This document shows, one piece after another, positions 3,380 through 13,172 of a stretch of DNA of 64,000 nt; within the stretch, counting starts at the first letter, position 1, and each line of letters opens with the position of its first letter. Origin of the DNA: Candidatus Kapaibacterium sp. (lineage in GTDB: Bacteria; Bacteroidota; Ignavibacteria; Kapaibacteriales; Kapaibacteriaceae); the NCBI GenBank assembly GCA_044345485.1, contig JBIJAX010000003.1, forward strand, positions 2,426-66,425, in the 5' to 3' direction. Below the pieces are notes generated by a model. It was given only the letters and a program-made list of their open reading frames with translations, was not told where the DNA came from and did not search any database. Position numbers and translations under genes: made by a program.

Positions 3380-4395
3380 ACAATGTTTTCAGTGGTTCGT
3401 AATTGCTCGAGTGAGCCGGACCCTGAAAGAAACATCATTTGTCGGATCTGGAGTTCCCAGCTGCGTACAAGTTGCAAAATTGCCGCGGTTCCACCCTCAT
3501 GTTGTGCAAATAGTATCGGACGCGCTGCTCCGGCCACGGTTGCACCTAATGCCACGGCCTTGGCGATATCCACGCCACACATGATGCCACCAGAGGCAAT
3601 CAGCGTTGGCACGATGCCCCTGCACTGCACAAGGGCTTCTGCCGTGGGTATGCCCACGTCCCAGAGGTGTTCAACGGTATTGGGGTGTGGGTGACGCTTG
3701 ATCTCGACGGCCGACCATGATGTGCCGCCAGCCCCTGCAACATCAATAATGCTCACACCGACCTCTGCCAGACGCTTTGCTACTGACCCCGATATACCTG
3801 CACCAACTTCTTTGATAACTAACGGAACCGGCGAGTGTTCCACAAGCCATGCGATTGCATCGGTTACACCGCGATACTCCGGCTCTCCCTCGGGCTGCGT
3901 GAGCTCCTGCAGCGGATTAAGGTGCACAGCCAATGCCGAGGCGCCGATCAATTCCACTGCAGCATCGACCATATGTGCGAGTGTGCCAGCACGTTTCCAG
4001 CGCACGGCCTGCACAGCGCCGATGTTGGCAAGGATGGGAACGCTACCGGAGAATTGCTTTACAACAGTAAACGACTCCCGATGTTCGTCCGATTCCAGAC
4101 ATGCACGCATCGAGCCAACGCCCATGGCGATGCCGAGCTCGTTGCATGCCTCTGCTAGATCACGGTTAATCCGTGCAGCATCGGGGTATCCCCCTGTCAT
4201 ACCCGTGATCATGAGCGGCAACTTGAGCGTTTTGCCCAGAAACTGCGTCTGCGTAGAGATCTCTGCAAGATCGATCTCGGGAAGTGCATTGTAGACGAAC
4301 TCCCAGTCATCAAAGGACGTCCCTTTGCGACGAAACCGTACGTCTTCCTGCAGCGCTATGCGCACATGATCTTCTTTGCGAGAATGAACAGACAT
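3367..4395 (-). CDS. fni: type 2 (FMN-dependent) isopentenyl-diphosphate delta-isomerase
   Basis: N-terminal RKEDHV, TIM-barrel motifs LMITGMTGG and LIASGGI; 342 aa; adjacent to the polyprenyl synthase. Confidence 0.85.
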   Translation of the reverse strand: MSVHSRKEDHVRIALQEDVRFRRKGTSFDDWEFVYNALPEIDLAEISTQTQFLGKTLKLPLMITGMTGGYPDAARINRDLAEACNELGIAMGVGSMRACLESDEHRESFTVVKQFSGSVPILANIGAVQAVRWKRAGTLAHMVDAAVELIGASALAVHLNPLQELTQPEGEPEYRGVTDAIAWLVEHSPVPLVIKEVGAGISGSVAKRLAEVGVSIIDVAGAGGTSWSAVEIKRHPHPNTVEHLWDVGIPTAEALVQCRGIVPTLIASGGIMCGVDIAKAVALGATVAGAARPILFAQHEGGTAAILQLVRSWELQIRQMMFLSGSGSLEQLRTTENIVCHH

Positions 4396-4406
4396 GCAAT
4401 CCTTGG

Positions 4407-5429
4407 TTATCGTCGAACAACAAACCGCTCGCCAGCTAACTGCGTCACGAACCCTAAAAGTTCAAATTCCAGCAGCTTACTACGCGCACTGGCTACATCA
4501 CATGCAAACATCGCGCAAAACTCATCAAGGTAATGAGGCGCCCCATCATCGATAGACTGTAGCTCCGTGGGCAGTTGCGATAGAGGCAACAGATCGACCT
4601 GCGGCACAACCTTAACCGACGAGCTCGAGAGCAGCATTTCTGCCTTACCTGAAGCGCACAGTGCATTGCAACCCTCGCTTCTGGCCGACGTGATAGGCCC
4701 CGGCGCGGCATAGAGCGGTTTGCCCTGCTGCAGGGCAAACTCTGCCGTGATGAGTGCTCCGCCCCTTGACTTACTCTCAATAACAACAACAGCATCTGAG
4801 AGTGCAGCGATGATTCTATTTCTGGCCGGAAAGGCAGGGGGCAGGGCAGCAACCCCACACGGATGCTCAGAGACTACTGCTCCGTGTCCGCTCGAAATGC
4901 GTCGCGCCAAATCGCTTGCTGTTTTCGGCGTAATGCGATCGATACCACTGGCAATCACCGCAATGGTAGGTGTATTGTTCTGGATGGCAGCCTCATGTGC
5001 GATCGTATCGATACCATTGGCCAGACCGCTCACGATAACCGTCCCGCTGCGAGCCCAGTCTGCCACGAGCATTCTTGTTACCGGCAATCCATACTGATGC
5101 GTACACTGACGTGTACCCACAACCCCCACGCTGTGCATTGCAGCATCGGGCAACGTGCCTGCAACAAACAATACCGACGGCGGATTTGCTATCTGCCGAA
5201 GACGTGAAGGATATGCGGCGTCAACGATCGTAACGATCGTTGCATTATGCTTGGAGCACCGCTCGCGCTGCTCACTACACAGGCGCTCCAGATCTGCGGG
5301 CATTGCCCCCAGCATAGCGAGCGCATCATGCAGCACATCGCATACATGCGCAAGCCGAATGATCTCATCGTTGGTAACGCCGCCCAGAAGTCGCAGCGCA
5401 AGAACATCATCAGAAGACAACATCAGCAT
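4407..5429 (-). CDS. dprA: DNA-processing protein DprA
   Basis: DprA core motifs SGLANGIDTIAHEAA and FPARNRIIAALS; 340 aa. Confidence 0.9.
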   Translation of the reverse strand: MLMLSSDDVLALRLLGGVTNDEIIRLAHVCDVLHDALAMLGAMPADLERLCSEQRERCSKHNATIVTIVDAAYPSRLRQIANPPSVLFVAGTLPDAAMHSVGVVGTRQCTHQYGLPVTRMLVADWARSGTVIVSGLANGIDTIAHEAAIQNNTPTIAVIASGIDRITPKTASDLARRISSGHGAVVSEHPCGVAALPPAFPARNRIIAALSDAVVVIESKSRGGALITAEFALQQGKPLYAAPGPITSARSEGCNALCASGKAEMLLSSSSVKVVPQVDLLPLSQLPTELQSIDDGAPHYLDEFCAMFACDVASARSKLLEFELLGFVTQLAGERFVVRR

Positions 5430-5802
5430 TCCCTTTTATGTCTTAGTGCCGCGAAGGTCAGGGAATGTGAAGGGGGACGGGAAGCACCTTCTCACCTTCT
5501 TCGCTGCGAGCCTCTTGCCCGTGGTGCTTCGATAACAATGGACCAGAGTTCTTGGTAGGGGATGATCTCGGAACATTGAGTTTGAGTTGTGCAGTCTTGT
5601 TTGAAGCCAGGATCATGTGCTCGATCGTTGTCAAGAGCAATGAGTCGATCGAGTCAGATCAACGCGCCACTAACCATGTCTGGTTCGTCCCGTCTATCTG
5701 AACAGTGATTCGCAGAGTTACACAAAGCCAAGATTCCTCCTGTATAAACTGCGGCGGACATCTCGAAGAGCTAACGGGCTACACAAACAAGTACCTTCTC
5801 GG

Positions 5803-6654
5803 CTATTGCTCCGCTTCTCGAAGCGATAAGACGTTTGATTGTTCTTGAACTCGCGTTAAAAATGCTGCGAAGCCATCGCCGCTTGTCAGAGCTCGCGAAT
5901 AGTACCAATCCTCCACGCTGCAGTCGTTGATACCCTCATCGATAGGAGGCGGACCCCACGCATTGAGCGTTTGCCATGGCATGTAAAATGCTGCTCCGTT
6001 GAACGTTCGCCCCAACGGTATGGTTGCTCCTCTGTGCACGATCGATTCATCGGTGGGATGATTGCGTTCTTGCACGCTATCTCTGTGCAGCGCAACTACA
6101 TGGATGCGCTCATGCTGAGAACAAAGTTCACTACACGTGGCGATGAATGGCTCTTGTACAAGCATATCATCGTCCATCACGGTTATACTTTGCGGACGCA
6201 TCAGGGCTGCAATACGCCATGCTTCGTGCACTCCAAATCCTTTTTGCCATTGCGGAACTGTGTCGGGCTGGTGTCGGACAAAGGTGTGCACAATTCCCTG
6301 AGAGCAACGTTCGATTAGTAAGGTCGGCGTAGCATCGGTACTTCCTGCATCGATAACGATGATCTTGGCATGGGGTTCATGGTGTTGAATAGAAACAATT
6401 GTCTTGTCGAGCAGTGCAGCGCGATTTCGCGTTACAATCACAATTACATCAATGTTTGAAGGCTCTGCCAGCAGAGATTGGTATCGCAATCGTGTTTCGA
6501 TGCTTGTTAGTGAATTAACAACCCAGCGACTCATCGTATCCACAACTCTGGTCTGGGCTCTTTTGATGCGCCTAAACAGCAGGATGCTGGAGGTTACAAG
6601 CAACAACAATGAGAGAACGCTTATGACGAGTACGGCTTCAATCATCTGATACAT
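5803..6654 (-). CDS. membrane-anchored GT-A fold glycosyltransferase (family 2-like)
   Basis: N-terminal TM helix (AVLVISVLSLLLLVTSSILLF). GT2-like VIVIVTRNRAALLDKTIVSI ... IIVIDAGSTD and an acidic VMDDDM motif. The ATG sits 4 nt after the upstream stop (TGAGGGGATG). Confidence 0.65.
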   Translation of the reverse strand: MYQMIEAVLVISVLSLLLLVTSSILLFRRIKRAQTRVVDTMSRWVVNSLTSIETRLRYQSLLAEPSNIDVIVIVTRNRAALLDKTIVSIQHHEPHAKIIVIDAGSTDATPTLLIERCSQGIVHTFVRHQPDTVPQWQKGFGVHEAWRIAALMRPQSITVMDDDMLVQEPFIATCSELCSQHERIHVVALHRDSVQERNHPTDESIVHRGATIPLGRTFNGAAFYMPWQTLNAWGPPPIDEGINDCSVEDWYYSRALTSGDGFAAFLTRVQEQSNVLSLREAEQ

Positions 6655-6658
6655 CCCC

Positions 6659-9652
6659 TCAACTCATGAGTTTACTTATTGTGCGCTGCATTGCTGGACG
6701 CAAGTCTTCTGGGAAGGGGCTGATGAGCCGGGTTAGATGCTTCCTCAGGTCTTCTGCATACTGACGCAGCTTCGGCAGTATCTCGCTGATCAAGATGGCA
6801 TCTGTGGGAAGCTCAATGTGCACCTTGCCGAGTCCTGCGAGCAGCGCTATGCACTCGGCTTCTTCCTGTGATTCACAGTCGAGCACAACGTCCGGACGTG
6901 CCCCTTTCCACGTTCGTACTCTCCACCCAAACATTGTTCCGTCCACTTCGGCACGCGTGATGCCAGATTCGAGCACAACTTCCCGACGGTTTGCTGCAGG
7001 CAGCTGGTTGATGTAGGGGGCGTACCAGGTCTTAAGTGGACGCAGCTTGTGGTCGCGCTCGAGTTCGTGGAGTAGGGTGTTTGTGAGGTGACGCACGTTC
7101 GATGGACGTGACCACCATGCGTAGGCAAAACGGTAGATCCATCGCTGCTCTTCGTCAGTGAGGCCAAAGACATCCTGCATAAGAAGGACGTCTAGTTTTC
7201 GGCGGTCTCGGCGGACAGTTTCCGGACGAATGGTGTCGCAAGAACTAGCGCCAAACTCGTCCGCTAACGTTGCAATTGCACGTCGCGTTAGCTGCTGTAG
7301 TGATGGGTCTGCAATCACCGAGAGAACAGCATCATCCGGGATGGGAAACTCCTGCGTATCGCGCACGGTGATATCAGCCACGTTGTCGGTAAGCCGCATA
7401 AGCTGACTAAAGAACAACCCGAGCGTGGAGTTCATCCATAAGGCCACGGCATCTCGCTGTGTGATATTTGCAAGCGTAACGCCAATGAATGCATCCGTTG
7501 CATAGGCATCTATGGAGTTAACGTGCACAATCCAGCGTCGGTGCTGCTGCTTTGGGATGATAAGGTGTGCGATCGACGGAGTAGGCACGTGCCACCATAC
7601 GCTGCGGTTGCGAATGCTTGGGCGCAGGTGAACGCCGTCGCGCTCAGCACGCTCAATGCGTGTGAGCACGTTGGTGCCCTGCATGGCATTGCGGTCTTCG
7701 GGTAGAAGCAGCAGACGTCTGTCTGATCGTGGAATGCCCATGATCGACTCTATATCATCAGCCGATGTAAGGATCGTTGCGTCTACCGTTGTTCCATTCT
7801 CGCGAGTGCGCTGCCAATACTCTGACTCAAGGTTATTGGTAGCGATATCGTGCGTATCAGGTGCAAAGATCTCATTCGCGCCGGTGCGCAAGCCCCCTCC
7901 TACATCTGCAATCGATGATAGGGGGCGCATGCGGTGCAGTGTTTTGCGGAGTACAGAAGAGAGCACATCAGGCGGAATAAGATAATCTTCCCATGACCCG
8001 GCATCGGTTAGATTGGACTGTGGAATCATGCGCACAACTGCTTCGTCGTTTACCTTGCCTCTATCCGATGCATCCAGATAAGCAATGAAGGCATCGAGAG
8101 ACTTCAGCCGTGCCTGCTCAAGGTCGCGTGATGCTTTCGATGAAGGGAAGAAGGCGGCAATCGGTCTGCGCAGATATACAAAGCGTGCCAAATGACTGTG
8201 ATGTTCTACTTCGGTCTTGCGGGCTACGATACAGCATACTCCTGCATCAGGTTCGGCAAGGGCCTCTACGTCGCTCATGATCACCCACTCGATAGCATAT
8301 CCGGCAGCTAAGGCCTGACGCATGGCAGTGTAGCGATCATCGTGCAGTGATGAAAGGGGCAGAAACAGTACAATGCATCCATCAGCCGCAATGGGCATGC
8401 GCTCCAGCAGGAGCCGCAGGCGATGTCGCTCCGTTATGTCTGCACTGGTAGCTACAACAAGATCCCATTGTCTGCGTGTTGCACGAGTTTCCCGCAGAAT
8501 CTGAACGTCTGCCGCAACGTCGAGTTTCCCTGATGCCCGCAGCACGATAGCACGCTCGTCTTCGCTGTTACGCGCATACACGCGGGCTTCGCACGGTGTG
8601 CTCTGTGCCATCAACATTTGGCGAACACTTGCCAAACCTTGGGTCTGACCAATCTCGAGCATGGAGATACGCTCGGGCGCATGATCACGCACGTGTACTA
8701 CCGCACGCAGGGCTAGGTCGAGCGCATCAATCGTTGGGACCGATGTGCGAGAAATGCGCGCACATCTTTGCAGGATTGCGTCGACGGCGCGGTGGAGTTC
8801 GTGATCTGTTAAGCGTTCTGGATCGAACCGGTGCAGGAAGTGAATTAGATCCGCAAGCGTCATCCGAAAGACTTCCTGCCTGTCGGGCAGCACGCGGACG
8901 TTTGCTACGCTGTGTGGAAGCATAGCGTAGCCCTTGCGCCGGGCTTGACGGAAGTACGCACCCACAAGGTCCAGCATAAGGTCCGAGCTGCGCGTCCCAT
9001 AGGGTATTGCCAGTCTATCAAACGCATCACGATTTCGCACGTGCATCAGCACATAGGCCAGAATGCTCGTGCCCAATCGCAGTGTGTACTCGCGTTGGTC
9101 GGCTGTAGGTTCTGTGCACGATGTAAGGTCATCAAACATCGACAGCACACGTTCCGAGAAAAATGCAGAGGCATCCCGTACTTGCTGCTGCTGGGGTATG
9201 GAGGACTCGATCGTAAGCCAGTTTACAGCATGTGATAGGGCGGCAACGAGCGACAGCTGCACGCCAGATGCCTTGGTGTCTTCAGCAGTGCGCACATCTG
9301 CCCCCTGCTGCCAGCCAACTACTTGTTCTTCGTCGGGCAGTCGCTTGGTAACAGCATCTGTGCGGTAGGTAACAACCCTACGAATATTCGTGAGGATGAA
9401 GTAAGGGCTCTGCACGCGCGAGGCAACAGAACGCAGTTTGTCCCGCGGAACATCGTCGAACGGACTTTCCGTGGGCTGAATGGCATCAATAACTGCCAGC
9501 ACAGTTCCATCTGCATGCTTGAGCATGAGAAAGGTGCCTTCTACACTCGTGAACTCTTCGATGGTAAGACGCTTAGTAGCATCAGCTGTGAGCTGCTGCA
9601 GACAAGATGTAAGCGTAGAACGCAGGATGTGGGATGTTTGGGCAGGCGACAT
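6659..9652 (-). CDS. type IIG/IIL restriction-modification-like (PglX/Eco57I-like) protein with degenerate catalytic motifs
   Basis: HsdR_N/PD-ExK-like N-terminus (VLAVIDAIQP ... SPYFILTNIRRVVTY). MTase motif I-like MLEIGQTQG. The motif IV position reads WDLVVATSAD instead of NPPY. TaqI_C-like TRD strings LSSIADVGGGLRTGANEIFA and NSTLGLFFSQL. All assignments are by eye, not by HMM. Confidence 0.55.
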   Translation of the reverse strand: MSPAQTSHILRSTLTSCLQQLTADATKRLTIEEFTSVEGTFLMLKHADGTVLAVIDAIQPTESPFDDVPRDKLRSVASRVQSPYFILTNIRRVVTYRTDAVTKRLPDEEQVVGWQQGADVRTAEDTKASGVQLSLVAALSHAVNWLTIESSIPQQQQVRDASAFFSERVLSMFDDLTSCTEPTADQREYTLRLGTSILAYVLMHVRNRDAFDRLAIPYGTRSSDLMLDLVGAYFRQARRKGYAMLPHSVANVRVLPDRQEVFRMTLADLIHFLHRFDPERLTDHELHRAVDAILQRCARISRTSVPTIDALDLALRAVVHVRDHAPERISMLEIGQTQGLASVRQMLMAQSTPCEARVYARNSEDERAIVLRASGKLDVAADVQILRETRATRRQWDLVVATSADITERHRLRLLLERMPIAADGCIVLFLPLSSLHDDRYTAMRQALAAGYAIEWVIMSDVEALAEPDAGVCCIVARKTEVEHHSHLARFVYLRRPIAAFFPSSKASRDLEQARLKSLDAFIAYLDASDRGKVNDEAVVRMIPQSNLTDAGSWEDYLIPPDVLSSVLRKTLHRMRPLSSIADVGGGLRTGANEIFAPDTHDIATNNLESEYWQRTRENGTTVDATILTSADDIESIMGIPRSDRRLLLLPEDRNAMQGTNVLTRIERAERDGVHLRPSIRNRSVWWHVPTPSIAHLIIPKQQHRRWIVHVNSIDAYATDAFIGVTLANITQRDAVALWMNSTLGLFFSQLMRLTDNVADITVRDTQEFPIPDDAVLSVIADPSLQQLTRRAIATLADEFGASSCDTIRPETVRRDRRKLDVLLMQDVFGLTDEEQRWIYRFAYAWWSRPSNVRHLTNTLLHELERDHKLRPLKTWYAPYINQLPAANRREVVLESGITRAEVDGTMFGWRVRTWKGARPDVVLDCESQEEAECIALLAGLGKVHIELPTDAILISEILPKLRQYAEDLRKHLTRLISPFPEDLRPAMQRTISKLMS

Positions 9653-9653
9653 T

Positions 9654-11003
9654 CTATCTGCGGACTAACGATGTTACACGTGTGATCAGTTCCTGTGCTT
9701 CGTCTTGCGTTGGTGCTTCAGCAATCACGCGAGCTATAGGCTCAGTATTCGATGCACGCACCTGCACCCATCGATCGGCCATGCCGATAAATACTCCGTC
9801 GAGCGTGGAGATTTCGGCGTCTGGAAAGGCCAACATGATGTCGGCAAATGACGCTGCTAATGCCTCGCGGCTCTCAAGCTCAAACTTGGTCTTGATCATG
9901 GCATACGATGGCAGCTGCGCGCATGCCTGGGACATAGTCAGGTTGTGGGAGCGGAGATACGACGAGATAACGCCAAGACCCACTAGACTGTCGCGTCCGG
10001 AATGACATGCCGGATAGATCACGCCGCCAGAGCCCTCGCCGCCGATTACGGCGCCCACTGATTGCATCTTGCGTACAACGTTAATCTCACCTACAGGAGC
10101 GCGATGACACGTAACACCGTACGAGGCTGCTACATCGTCCACAACGCGTGTGGTAGAAAAGTTTACGACTACGTCGCCCCGTTCACCACTGTCGAGTACA
10201 GCTTTTGTAGCCAGAGCGATAGTGCGTTCTTCGCCAATCGGCATACCGTGTTCATCAAACAAGACGAGTCGGTCTCCATCTGGATCGATAGCCACACCGA
10301 ACGCCGCATTGTGCTGACGTACTGCGTCACCAAGCTGCGTTAGGTTTTCGGTAAGGGGCTCGGGCGTGTGGGGGAATATTCCGGATCCATCGCAGAAGAG
10401 TCGAACAACCTCGTAGCCCATGCGCTCGAGCAGCATTGGTGCGCTTACAGAGGCGGAGCAGTTAACGGCATCTACCACTACGCGCTGTGCATCAGAGCGT
10501 GGGGCAGAGCGCACAGCCGGGATGTCGCAGACGCGGTCTACATGAAACATATCGGCATCATGCCGAAACACAACATGCCCATGCTGCTGGTCTGGAGATA
10601 ACGAATCTGGCGCAGGAGTATCAACTGCAGCCCACAGCCGTGCGTTTGCTTCTGCATCCAGGAAGACACCGCCGGCGTCGAGAAACTTTAGTCCGTTCCA
10701 TGGCGCGGGATTATGCGATGCAGTAATCGCAATGCCGCCTACGGCATCTGTGTGTTCGGTGATAAGCTGTACGGTGGGTGTTGTTGCAACATTGAGCACC
10801 ACAACTGGACGTCCGCATGCGCGCAGCGTACCAACAACGATGTCCTGCATCCACGCCCCGCTCGGACGTCCGTCTCTGCCAACTACGATAGCCCCCTGAG
10901 GGAGAATCGCGTGAAATGCCCACGCATACTGTGCCACAAGCGTTGGTGTTAGGTCGTTGCCGAGTGTTGCGCGAAGTCCGGAGATGGATCTAATACAGGC
11001 CAT
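9654..11003 (-). CDS. glmM: phosphoglucosamine mutase-like alpha-D-phosphohexomutase
   Basis: Active-site loop GIAITASHNPAPWNGLKF, metal loop AIDPDGDR, and N-terminus MACIRSISGLRAT like Bacteroidota-type GlmM. Start moved to ATG 11001-11003, because the track's upstream extension is Cys/Arg/His-rich and would overlap the next gene. Confidence 0.8.
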   Translation of the reverse strand: MACIRSISGLRATLGNDLTPTLVAQYAWAFHAILPQGAIVVGRDGRPSGAWMQDIVVGTLRACGRPVVVLNVATTPTVQLITEHTDAVGGIAITASHNPAPWNGLKFLDAGGVFLDAEANARLWAAVDTPAPDSLSPDQQHGHVVFRHDADMFHVDRVCDIPAVRSAPRSDAQRVVVDAVNCSASVSAPMLLERMGYEVVRLFCDGSGIFPHTPEPLTENLTQLGDAVRQHNAAFGVAIDPDGDRLVLFDEHGMPIGEERTIALATKAVLDSGERGDVVVNFSTTRVVDDVAASYGVTCHRAPVGEINVVRKMQSVGAVIGGEGSGGVIYPACHSGRDSLVGLGVISSYLRSHNLTMSQACAQLPSYAMIKTKFELESREALAASFADIMLAFPDAEISTLDGVFIGMADRWVQVRASNTEPIARVIAEAPTQDEAQELITRVTSLVRR

Positions 11004-11008
11004 AATGC

Positions 11009-12409
11009 TCAATGTTGTGGTGCTGTGCCGCAGAGTGCTTCGATATCTGCAGCAGTGCGTGCAAGAGTTGCAGAGAGGTTTACAGGACCCTCGGCAGTGA
11101 TGAGAATATCGTCTTCGATGCGCACCCCGATGTTCCACCATCGTTTGTCGCATGCCGAGCCAGCTGGAATATAAATGCCAGGCTCAACAGTAATAACAGA
11201 GTTTACCTGAAGGGGGCCGCCCGTACCAGGATCATGCACATCGAGTCCCAGATAATGGGATGTGCCGTGCATGAAGTAGTGCTTCACATCAGCAAGATCC
11301 TTGATGATACCCAGCTTTAGCAGCCCGTCGGCGATTACGGTTGTAGCTGCCGTGTGCGGCGCGCGGAAGGGGGCTCCGGCAACGGACGCGGCAATGCCTG
11401 CATCCTGCGCTGCCAGAACGAGGTCGTAGATCTGACGCTGCTCATCGGTGAACTTGCCCGAGAGCGGAAACGTGCGTGTGATGTCAGCCGTATACCCGTG
11501 ATACTCCGCACCGCAGTCTGCCAGCACGAGGTCGTTCATCGTTGTTGCACGTCTGTTCGCTGTGTAGTGCAGAATGCATGCATTGTAGTTAGAACCAACG
11601 ATCGATGGATATCCTACGTCTTCTGCTCCTCCGCGTTTGAAGCCATACTCCATAAGAGCTTCGAGCTCGTATTCCTTCATGCCTGGGCGGGCGCCGCGCA
11701 TGGTTGTGCGGTGACCCTCCATAGAGATCTCGATGGCTTTGCGGAGCAGACGCAGTTCTGAGGTGTCTTTTACTTCACGCATAGCGCGCAGAATAGACAT
11801 CGGTGTCTTGAGGATGATGGATGCGTTACGTTCCTTGACCCATTTCTTGAGCTCAGCATCGGCATACATGTTCTTGCCGGTAAGGGGCACCTGGAGCGAC
11901 TTTGTTGGAAGCGTTGAGTAGTGCAGGGTGTCAAGGCGCTGCAGCAGTGAGTCGAGAACTACTTTCAATTCTGTTGCAACTATTGCCGTGTCTACACCCA
12001 GATACTGCATGGCTTCAGTAGGACCCATGCTTACGCCCTGCCATACTTCGCGGTCCTGATTGCGCTTTGGAATAAACAGCACTTCTGTGTACGTGCGATC
12101 TCCCAATTGGATGCCACCGGGTGCGATCACGAGTGTTGTACCAGGCGTCTGACATCCAGTAAGGTAGAGCATGTCTGAACTTTGGCGGTATTCGTAGTCT
12201 ACATCGTTTTGTCTGTTGCGCACATCGGCAGAAAACACGATGGCCGCAGACCGTTGCGCAAGAGATGCTGCCACTCGCGCCCTGCGTTCTTTGTAGACGT
12301 GCGGCAACGGTAGGTCTGTATCGAACACCTCAAAGGGAAACGTCTGTGCTGGAGCATGCAAGCCCCCTACAAATGCTGCGAGCAAGGCAGCGACAAGTAC
12401 GCGTGTCAT
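11009..12409 (-). CDS. Xaa-Pro aminopeptidase (M24B), secreted
   Basis: Metal ligand motifs LADCGAEYHGYTADITRTF, HGTSHYLGLDVHD, VEPGIY, RIEDDI. Signal peptide from MTRVLVAALLAAFVGG (ATG at 12407-12409). Confidence 0.85.
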   Translation of the reverse strand: MTRVLVAALLAAFVGGLHAPAQTFPFEVFDTDLPLPHVYKERRARVAASLAQRSAAIVFSADVRNRQNDVDYEYRQSSDMLYLTGCQTPGTTLVIAPGGIQLGDRTYTEVLFIPKRNQDREVWQGVSMGPTEAMQYLGVDTAIVATELKVVLDSLLQRLDTLHYSTLPTKSLQVPLTGKNMYADAELKKWVKERNASIILKTPMSILRAMREVKDTSELRLLRKAIEISMEGHRTTMRGARPGMKEYELEALMEYGFKRGGAEDVGYPSIVGSNYNACILHYTANRRATTMNDLVLADCGAEYHGYTADITRTFPLSGKFTDEQRQIYDLVLAAQDAGIAASVAGAPFRAPHTAATTVIADGLLKLGIIKDLADVKHYFMHGTSHYLGLDVHDPGTGGPLQVNSVITVEPGIYIPAGSACDKRWWNIGVRIEDDILITAEGPVNLSATLARTAADIEALCGTAPQH

Positions 12410-12440: not shown

Positions 12441-13172
12441 TCACACTGCAACACACAGGGTTGCAGCGTCTACACTTCGGGCTCCAGCTTCGATAAGGGC
12501 AGTTGCACAGGCATTGAGTGTAGAGCCGGTTGTGAGTACATCGTCGATAAGCAGGATGTGGGTATTCAGAATGCTATCGGGATTGGGCACTGTGAAGATC
12601 CCGCTTACGTTCGAACGGCGGTCTGCGTCGGACTTTGTGGTTTGCGATTCTGTGTATCGGTTGCGGATGATGCTTTCAGACGTAAGCATCGCCAGTCCGC
12701 TTCGCTCGCAGAAGCCCTTAGCAATTAGCTCTGCCTGATTGTAGCCCCGCTCACGTCGCCTGGCAGGGTGAATCGGCACGGGGCACACCAGGGTTTCTGG
12801 ATCTGGCGCAGATTGCATGCAATGTTCAGCGAGAACACGGCCGAGCGCAATAGCAAGGTGCGTGCGTCCGCCGTATTTGATGGCGTAGATCGCATTGTCG
12901 ATCGTAGATGTCTGCGAGAGCGCCCATACCGATGCGAATTGGGAGATCATGAGATCGTCCGCCTGTACATGACGCTGGATGAGGAGCTCGATCTCTACGC
13001 CACGTGGTGCAGGCTGATGAAACAGCAGCGCCGTGTCGATGACACCGGGTGCATAGGTAGGGGCGGTAGAAAGACGCTCGCCCGTAAGCAGACAATGCTC
13101 GGGGTAGAGCGTTGAGGCCAGAGCACGGCAGGCACTTCGCGCACTCTGGACCACCATGTCCAGAATGCACAT
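12441..13172 (-). CDS. comF: ComF family protein (phosphoribosyltransferase domain)
   Basis: PRTase motif LLIDDVLTTGSTLNAC, ComFC-like length (243 aa). The N-terminal zinc-finger cysteines are not obvious. Confidence 0.75.
   Translation of the reverse strand: MCILDMVVQSARSACRALASTLYPEHCLLTGERLSTAPTYAPGVIDTALLFHQPAPRGVEIELLIQRHVQADDLMISQFASVWALSQTSTIDNAIYAIKYGGRTHLAIALGRVLAEHCMQSAPDPETLVCPVPIHPARRRERGYNQAELIAKGFCERSGLAMLTSESIIRNRYTESQTTKSDADRRSNVSGIFTVPNPDSILNTHILLIDDVLTTGSTLNACATALIEAGARSVDAATLCVAV

Follow-up and report, generated by a model that had tools for sequence, protein, structure and literature searches.

A catalytically eroded relative of type IIG restriction-modification enzymes conserved across Kapabacteria

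Restriction-modification (RM) enzymes are usually viewed as selfish, mobile and fast turning over. Here we describe gene X, which lies in a 64,000-nucleotide stretch of contig JBIJAX010000003.1 from Candidatus Kapaibacterium sp. (assembly GCA_044345485.1; the whole stretch is hereafter called the window) and whose product is homologous over its full length to single-chain type IIG RM enzymes while lacking the motifs of both of their catalytic centres. X is an unbroken open reading frame (ORF) of 997 codons with an ATG start on the minus strand, beginning 1 nt past the stop codon of a glmM-like gene (TAG-A-ATG), as a first-pass annotation made from the sequence alone had described. The same annotation reported the stop of X as fused to the next start, which proved wrong because GGGG separates the TGA of X from the ATG of a GT2 glycosyltransferase gene. 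The GC profile shows no break across X, the GC content at third codon positions is 0.56, and relative synonymous codon usage correlates with that of the neighbours at r = 0.87, i.e. codon usage is native. A promoter and terminator scan of the glmM-like-X-GT2 run returned nothing convincing, the sigma-70 consensus being unsuited to this phylum.

Gene X and its type IIG relatives

The gene and its parts are listed below with the evidence for each. The active relatives are a set of type IIG proteins, introduced after the list, to which P0051 belongs; MTase stands for methyltransferase and TRD for target-recognition domain.

6659..9652, minus strand: gene X, catalytically eroded type IIG RM derivative (ORF, orthologue clusters, hhalign, Foldseek)
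9299..9652, minus strand: PD-(D/E)xK nuclease-like domain of HSDR_N type, residues 1-118 (alpha-beta-beta-beta-alpha-beta-beta in the AlphaFold2 model; aligned to the nuclease domain of the relatives)
9536..9541, minus strand: E38-G39, equivalent of the 'PD' (hhalign column against 'PDIVI' of the active relatives; motif census)
9479..9487, minus strand: D56-A57-I58, equivalent of (D/E)xK (hhalign against 'IExK'; motif census)
8693..9298, minus strand: helical domain, residues 119-320, counterpart of the N6_Mtase/HsdM N-terminal helical domain (AlphaFold2, hhalign)
8153..8692, minus strand: stripped gamma-class MTase-like Rossmann core, residues 321-500 (global hhalign)
8636..8662, minus strand: MLEIGQTQG, remnant of motif I, residues 331-339 (alignment to DPxCGAGTF of the relatives)
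8438..8449, minus strand: TSAD at the position of motif IV (NPPY), residues 402-405 (hhalign, motif census)
7082..8152, minus strand: TRD of TaqI_C / M_Eco57I_C type plus closing helices, residues 501-857 (PADLOC MTase_II, HMMER, alignment to P0051)
6662..7078, minus strand: C-terminal beta-sheet/helix domain, residues 859-997 (domain model; alignment to the C-termini of the active relatives)

Pfam and NCBIfam scans of X gave no match even at E ≤ 10, and a sequence profile of the X family retrieved zero chains from the PDB at E ≤ 1. A PADLOC scan at E ≤ 10 returned two profiles only, MTase_II (PDLC03267) on residues 529-752 with E 7.6e-18 and, weakly, REase_MTase_IIG (PDLC03606); no BREX profile was among them. 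We built an AlphaFold2 model of X (m8d327a7b8607) from 23 orthologues, with a predicted local distance difference test score (pLDDT) of 84.7 and a predicted template modelling score of 0.77. Foldseek placed RM.BpuSI (3s1s) first among PDB structures, with E 5.9e-20 over 960 columns, followed by CamA, M.BseCI, PacII, HsdM, DrdV and BrxX/PglX.

A profile search of 1.8 billion representative sequences recovered 1236 relatives of X, with about a dozen representatives as full-length members. The next tier (P0051, P0053, P0055, P0056, P0057, P0060 and others) consists of proteins of about 1140 residues that HMMER matched at query positions of about 445-998 only. These match Pfam Eco57I, N6_Mtase and MmeI_Mtase and, weakly, HSDR_N_2, TaqI_C or M_Eco57I_C; they match both of the PADLOC profiles found in X strongly, PDLC03267 as well as PDLC03606, the latter at about 1e-47 to 1e-51 over almost their full length, resemble CamA/M.BseCI/M.TaqI-type MTases by sequence, and show D...IExK, DPxCGAGTF and GNPPYTRQEE. 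Judged by their sequences, they are bona fide type IIG enzymes. Upstream of one of them (P0055, locus L039, 3723-7305) stand three co-directional genes of 123, 424 and 651 codons with no Pfam match, which may encode partners of this RM subfamily that have yet to be recognised.

We used 12 of the next-tier proteins as active relatives in profile-profile alignment and in a motif census. Aligned by hhalign with the X family, they gave a probability of 100% with E 4.5e-64 over 967 columns in local mode and 1e-100 in global mode, the two alignments spanning 967-973 columns. Because the alignment spans the full length, the homology of X to this active type IIG subfamily extends through every domain. 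Its domain order is PD-(D/E)xK-like nuclease, helical domain, gamma-class MTase-like Rossmann core, TRD and C-terminal domain, and both Foldseek and hhalign recover in one chain the order of PD-(D/E)xK fold, gamma-class MTase fold and TRD. PADLOC, Foldseek and hhalign thus bear out the three-part type IIG layout proposed in the first-pass annotation. In profile and structure checks of the kind suggested there, Pfam and NCBIfam found nothing whereas PADLOC, hhalign and Foldseek were highly significant; the relationship is visible only to PADLOC, profile-profile and fold comparison.

Two lost catalytic centres under strong constraint

The likeness of the N-terminus to an HsdR_N/PD-(D/E)xK module, noticed at first pass, is supported by hhalign and by the secondary structure of the AlphaFold2 model. 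Throughout the X family the metal-binding Asp position of the 'PD' is an invariant Gly39, preceded by a conserved E/D, and the Lys position of IExK holds I, V, L or M, with R in two members. In the motif census, which compared 33 X orthologues of 33-98% identity with the 12 nearest active relatives, h(D/E)xK was present in 0/33 orthologues and 12/12 relatives, in agreement with the earlier reading that D-A-I had replaced E-x-K. A further sign of degeneracy that had been read in the same module, TNI for TNG, fell away, as T-x-N-F is the form seen in the active relatives and TNF the form in most orthologues.

The MTase-like core has been stripped as well. Global hhalign showed that about 80 residues of the MTase core of P0051, including the motif V/VI region, are missing from X. 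The stretch MLEIGQTQG at residues 331-339, proposed at first pass as motif I-like, does align to motif I: where the active relatives have DPxCGAGTF, X has E333-I-G-Q-T-Q-G339-L-A, with L332, E333, G335 and G339 invariant in the family. The acidic D of motif II in the active relatives falls on R/P361 of X and that of motif III on an invariant G375, both in low-confidence alignment. At motif IV the active relatives have NPPY and X has T402-S-A-D405. The loss of this motif had been recognised, but its register had been given as ATSA (401-404), one residue off. The position reads TSAD, SSTD, TTTD, SLTG, SGHD, ATTD and others among orthologues; it varies within the family and is therefore not under catalytic constraint. 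An NPPY-like motif occurs in 0/33 orthologues and 12/12 active relatives.

We also examined the 69 remote matches of at least 850 residues for further 'dead' variants; the only others there without a strict NPPY were P0104 (SHPPY) and P0152 (SNLPY). Both were rejected, because they keep motif I and a near-canonical motif IV; the eroded state is thus specific to the X family. Since the motifs are absent from all 33 orthologues and present in all 12 active relatives, their loss is old and clade-wide, not recent. Close relatives with intact NPPY and PD-ExK, which the first-pass annotation had named as the finding that would mark X as a recently inactivated RM gene, were not seen.

The TRD is the region of X that stayed closest to the active enzymes, with 24-26% identity to P0051 compared with 17-18% elsewhere, and the motifs GxRTGANExF and WxNS are common to X and the active enzymes. 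The PADLOC MTase_II match on residues 529-752 supports the TaqI_C/Eco57I-like TRD of the first reading; Pfam M_Eco57I_C is marginal (best E 0.015, in 4/23 X members), and a precomputed match to it is listed for all homologues. Three TRD loops of low pLDDT (591-603, 639-643 and 673-688) are rich in conserved Arg and His. The C-terminal domain modelled alone has a pLDDT of 93.6 and consists of a four-stranded sheet, a helix, a strand and long helices. Searched alone against the PDB with Foldseek it gave no significant match (best E 0.31), and the PUR-alpha fold that came up was not meaningful (E 0.66, probability 0.07). The first-pass annotation had recognised no motif in this C-terminus; the part is no add-on, since its roughly 140 residues are common to the active relatives. 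Its presence in the uncharacterised active subfamily of about 1140 residues means that real RM enzymes, too, carry this undescribed domain.

We translated X from 17 genomes and found every frame unbroken; its 36 orthologue clusters encode proteins of about 1000 residues. We estimated ratios of nonsynonymous to synonymous substitution (dN/dS) by the Nei-Gojobori method in ten genome pairs; synonymous divergence was unsaturated in eight, from which the values are taken. For X they were 0.03-0.08 over the whole gene and 0.01-0.18 in the five domains taken singly: 0.04-0.18 in the nuclease-like domain, 0.01-0.06 in the helical domain, which is the most constrained part, and 0.02-0.08 in the TRD. 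Compared within the same genome pairs, X (0.026-0.072) equals or falls below MurD, the GlmM-like protein, IDI2, polyprenyl synthase and DprA. Values as low as or lower than those of its housekeeping neighbours agree with the earlier suggestion of exaptation rather than decay.

The two families also differ in where they are conserved. In the active subfamily mean pairwise identity is 0.52 in the MTase core, 0.36 in the TRD and 0.30 in the nuclease; a variable nuclease and TRD are expected of enzymes that diversify their specificity. The X family has 0.50-0.56 in every domain, and its helical domain averages 0.55 against 0.32 in the active relatives. Judged from these sequences, the even conservation of X would fit a single fixed target, not diversifying specificity.

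A fixed place among housekeeping genes

X homologues are 'hypothetical proteins' of about 1000 residues from metagenome-assembled genomes labelled Kapabacteria, Ignavibacteria, Chlorobi or Bacteroidota. Scanning one genome per GTDB species yielded 32 X loci, a single one per genome, in Kapabacteria. The X block also occurs in several GenBank records of metagenome-assembled genomes (L005, L019, L029, L030, L033, L035 and L036) that bear the titles Patescibacteria, Chitinophaga pinensis, Hyphomicrobiales, Bradyrhizobiaceae or Didemnitutus, probably because the bins were mislabelled or contaminated. In loci extending far enough, a nine-gene order is conserved: Trp 2,3-dioxygenase, ComF-like phosphoribosyltransferase, Xaa-Pro aminopeptidase, GlmM-like protein, X, DprA, type-2 isopentenyl diphosphate isomerase, polyprenyl synthase and MurD. 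Two out-group genomes with GlmM-like orthologues of 51-54% identity have neither X nor the block nor a glmM-dprA adjacency. The nearest neighbours of X in the window are as follows.

9654..11003, minus strand: glmM-like phosphohexomutase gene (adjacency, library match)
5803..6654, minus strand: GT2 glycosyltransferase gene, between X and dprA (GC 0.49, lowest codon-usage correlation)
4407..5429, minus strand: dprA, conserved downstream neighbour (TIGR00732, E 6.6e-65, above cutoff)

The glmM-like gene is directly upstream of X in every locus that reaches it, and in other genomes (L001, L002, L037 and L038) its stop overlaps the X start by 4-8 nt; from this arrangement the two genes are likely translationally coupled. 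Its product scores just below the cutoff of archaeal-type GlmM (TIGR03990, 427 versus 439 bits). Called mechanically, the ORF spans 9654-11153 on the minus strand (499 codons) and runs about 145 nt into the aminopeptidase gene. As orthologues have 447-451 residues, translation probably begins at the ATG at 11003 (449 codons). Farther upstream, L040 has an NDH-2-like flavoprotein and the Xaa-Pro aminopeptidase called as one gene of 914 codons (4247-6991), a fusion or a gene-calling artefact; in L037 the two genes are separate and adjacent.

On the other side, dprA directly follows X in nearly all loci. The first-pass annotation had taken glmM-X-GT2 as the arrangement whose conservation mattered, but the GT2 gene was seen only in the window and three related genomes (L006-L008), and it is dprA that keeps its place downstream. 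GT2 was thus inserted locally, at a spot between X and dprA where the inserted DNA varies. In L005, a strain of 98% identity, an opposite-strand lipoprotein-like ORF of 223 codons (MKSLVLFFATALFLASC..., 9234-9905) takes the place of GT2. Upstream of dprA in the window lies a non-coding spacer of 373 nt (5430-5802), and an Rfam scan of the whole window found no RNA family. On the upstream side of the block, two genes away, a 243-residue protein with a phosphoribosyltransferase domain (12441-13172, minus strand) has ComF/GntX as its best match (TIGR00201, E 4e-25, below the curated cutoff), so that the conserved block holds a comF-like gene as well as dprA.

The remaining window is ordinary chromosome (YidC, IMPDH, TamB, OmpA-like and others), and its gene scans showed no integrase or transposase, as had been said at first pass, and no defence gene. 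The companion claim that X is not island cargo was likewise upheld by native codon usage, the smooth composition and the universal place in the nine-gene block. The peptides quoted in support of that first reading were all found at the residues and nucleotides given for them.

These features set X apart from the systems it resembles. Type IIG (IIC) enzymes of the BpuSI/Eco57I kind (Pfam Eco57I, N6_Mtase, HSDR_N_2 and TaqI_C/M_Eco57I_C; RM.BpuSI, 3s1s) have the same domain order and folds over the length of X, and the uncharacterised active subfamily of about 1140 residues also has the same extra C-terminal domain. Unlike them, X has no D...(D/E)xK and no NPPY, an apparently degraded set of S-adenosylmethionine (SAM) motifs and a Rossmann core shorter by about 80 residues. 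Its domains are equally conserved, whereas active enzymes combine a conserved MTase with a variable TRD and nuclease. RM genes are typically sporadic island cargo; X is a vertically inherited single-copy core gene with a fixed place in 32 species genomes and native codons. Since X lacks both the catalytic features and the population biology of type IIG, we would not class it among RM enzymes. The solitary gamma-class MTases CamA, M.BseCI and M.TaqI match X in core and TRD fold (Foldseek E of about 1e-12 to 1e-13) but are active, have NPPY and carry no nuclease domain. BREX PglX/BrxX and type IIL DrdV/MmeI are, like X, large single chains with gamma-MTase and TRD, and they match less well than BpuSI (1e-8 to 1e-10); their catalytic motifs are intact, unlike those of X. 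Nor does X belong to BREX, in which an NPPY MTase accompanies brxA/B/C, pglZ and brxL: it has no NPPY, and its neighbours are housekeeping genes.

The closest parallel is DndH of the DndFGH system, which contains an inactive gamma-group DNA adenine methylase domain with a nested TRD, its SAM loop and [SDN]PP[FYW] motif eroded (PMC10853773). That eroded methylase and TRD were interpreted as a non-catalytic DNA-recognition module (PMC10853773). X likewise has an eroded gamma-MTase Rossmann fold and a retained TRD. DndH, however, keeps an active restriction endonuclease, is fused to a HerA/FtsK-type ATPase and belongs to a mobile defence system, whereas in X the nuclease is lost, there is no ATPase and the context is housekeeping. 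Pfam, AlphaFold2 and Foldseek detected no HerA/FtsK-type ATPase domain in X, and no dnd genes lie nearby in the window.

What X may do

On balance, we read the observed homology, architecture, old and clade-wide motif loss, selective constraint and fixed genomic position of X as those of a type IIG derivative that has been domesticated, has lost catalysis and still uses its TRD to recognise DNA. A Kapabacteria ancestor would have acquired a single-chain enzyme of the BpuSI/Eco57I kind (PDLC03606) that combined nuclease, N6-adenine MTase and TRD. The nuclease centre would then have been lost by changes of the first Asp to Gly and of the Lys to a hydrophobic residue, and the MTase centre by replacement of the motif II and III acids, erasure of NPPY and deletion of about 80 residues. 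The whole scaffold would nevertheless have been kept and held by strong purifying selection. The gene would have been passed on vertically as one chromosomal copy upstream of dprA, sharing a transcript with the glmM-like gene and probably coupled to it in translation. We infer from its residues that X now neither cuts nor methylates. Its activity would lie in the TRD, which would let it recognise one fixed DNA target without catalysis, a role close to the sequence-specific DNA-binding or sensing scaffold suggested at first pass. The former nuclease, helical and Rossmann domains may provide surfaces for clamping or interaction, and the extreme constraint on the helical domain suggests that it has gained a surface for a partner. 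The evenly conserved TRD, together with its Arg- and His-rich loops of low model confidence, would fit recognition of a fixed DNA target. More specifically, X could assist DprA, perhaps along with the ComF-like protein, in handling DNA that enters the cell or is damaged, whether single- or double-stranded; it might, for example, mark or pick out 'self-type' DNA for recombination and leave it uncut and unmethylated. We regard this idea as quite unlikely.

Several observations weigh against such a DNA-recognition role or against complete loss of function at the two centres. The net charge of X is slightly negative. No k-mer (k = 6, 8, 10 or 12) is over-represented in the 64-kb window, a count whose power is limited by its 64 kb. 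Synteny with dprA says little about function, since all nine genes of the block, housekeeping genes with unrelated roles, are conserved together, and since P0047 (L038), which diverges most within the family, has the glmM-like gene upstream but an amino-acid kinase gene, not dprA, downstream. With E/D38 and D56 conserved, a metal site might conceivably persist in the nuclease-like domain. Given the invariant acid and last Gly of motif I, some ligand may likewise still be bound, and the alignment near motifs II and III is of low confidence.

Some of the same residues would be expected if X were still an enzyme, whether an MTase or nuclease that relies on non-canonical catalytic residues or a Rossmann-fold enzyme with a different substrate. 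Purifying selection is strong on both the nuclease-like and the MTase-like domain; L332, E333, G335 and G339 are joined by new invariant arginines (R367, R372, R409 and R411) around the former active site, and acidic residues persist at E/D38 and D56. We nonetheless consider this very unlikely, as all four residues of motif IV are replaced at a position that varies among orthologues, the motif II and III acids appear to be replaced, about 80 core residues that include the motif V/VI region are gone, the first Asp of the nuclease is Gly in all members with a hydrophobic residue (R in two members) for the Lys, and no Pfam or NCBIfam MTase model matches the core even at E ≤ 10. Loss could instead have gone further, leaving a protein scaffold or ligand sensor without DNA recognition, for example in envelope precursor metabolism with the GlmM-like mutase. 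The glmM-like gene is the sole universal neighbour, usually with overlapping stop and start; MurD, polyprenyl synthase and IDI2 are encoded in the same block; the net charge of X is not basic; and the helical domain (dN/dS 0.01-0.06) rather than the TRD is most constrained. Set against this, the TRD has kept the most ancestral sequence, including GxRTGANExF and WxNS, and is constrained as much as the rest of X, and the block mixes unrelated functions, so that adjacency weighs little. We hold a scaffold role to be unlikely, if worth keeping in mind.

A TRD derived from a defence-type enzyme could also make X a protective decoy, a dominant-negative protein that sits on sites recognised by foreign methylases or by active type IIG relatives, as has been proposed for the inactive methylase domain of DndH (PMC10853773). 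A role in such conflict predicts sporadic distribution and a fast-changing TRD, and X is a fixed core gene with a TRD dN/dS of 0.02-0.08 and no defence genes nearby; the chance of this seems slimmer still than that of a surviving enzyme. The loss of every catalytic motif might suggest that X is an RM gene inactivated not long ago, or a pseudogene in decay. This reading is refuted by a dN/dS of 0.03-0.08 and by motif loss common to members down to 33-40% identity, alongside intact frames from 17 genomes and 36 clusters of about 1000 residues, and we give it practically no weight.

In the searchable literature on Kapabacteria, inactive or domesticated type IIG enzymes and pseudoenzyme MTases we found no prior description of the X family, DndH being the sole precedent, by analogy; the sources naming X members that we looked up call them 'hypothetical protein'. 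The concept of an eroded methylase with a TRD is known from DndH. What would be new is a type IIG derivative that lost both activities, was domesticated and became a fixed core gene. Such RM derivatives escape standard annotation, which offers 'hypothetical protein' and no Pfam match.

The evolutionary finding is solid and would be surprising to RM specialists. If our reading is true, X is a natural, programmable-looking DNA-recognition scaffold without catalysis and a bacterial counterpart of eukaryotic pseudo-methyltransferases. A complete single-chain RM enzyme would in that case have lost both of its activities and then stayed for a long evolutionary time in the core genome of a whole bacterial class, as tightly constrained as the enzymes of peptidoglycan and isoprenoid synthesis. 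If the link of X to DprA and ComF were also true, an RM barrier to foreign DNA would have been turned into a housekeeping part of DNA uptake or recombination.

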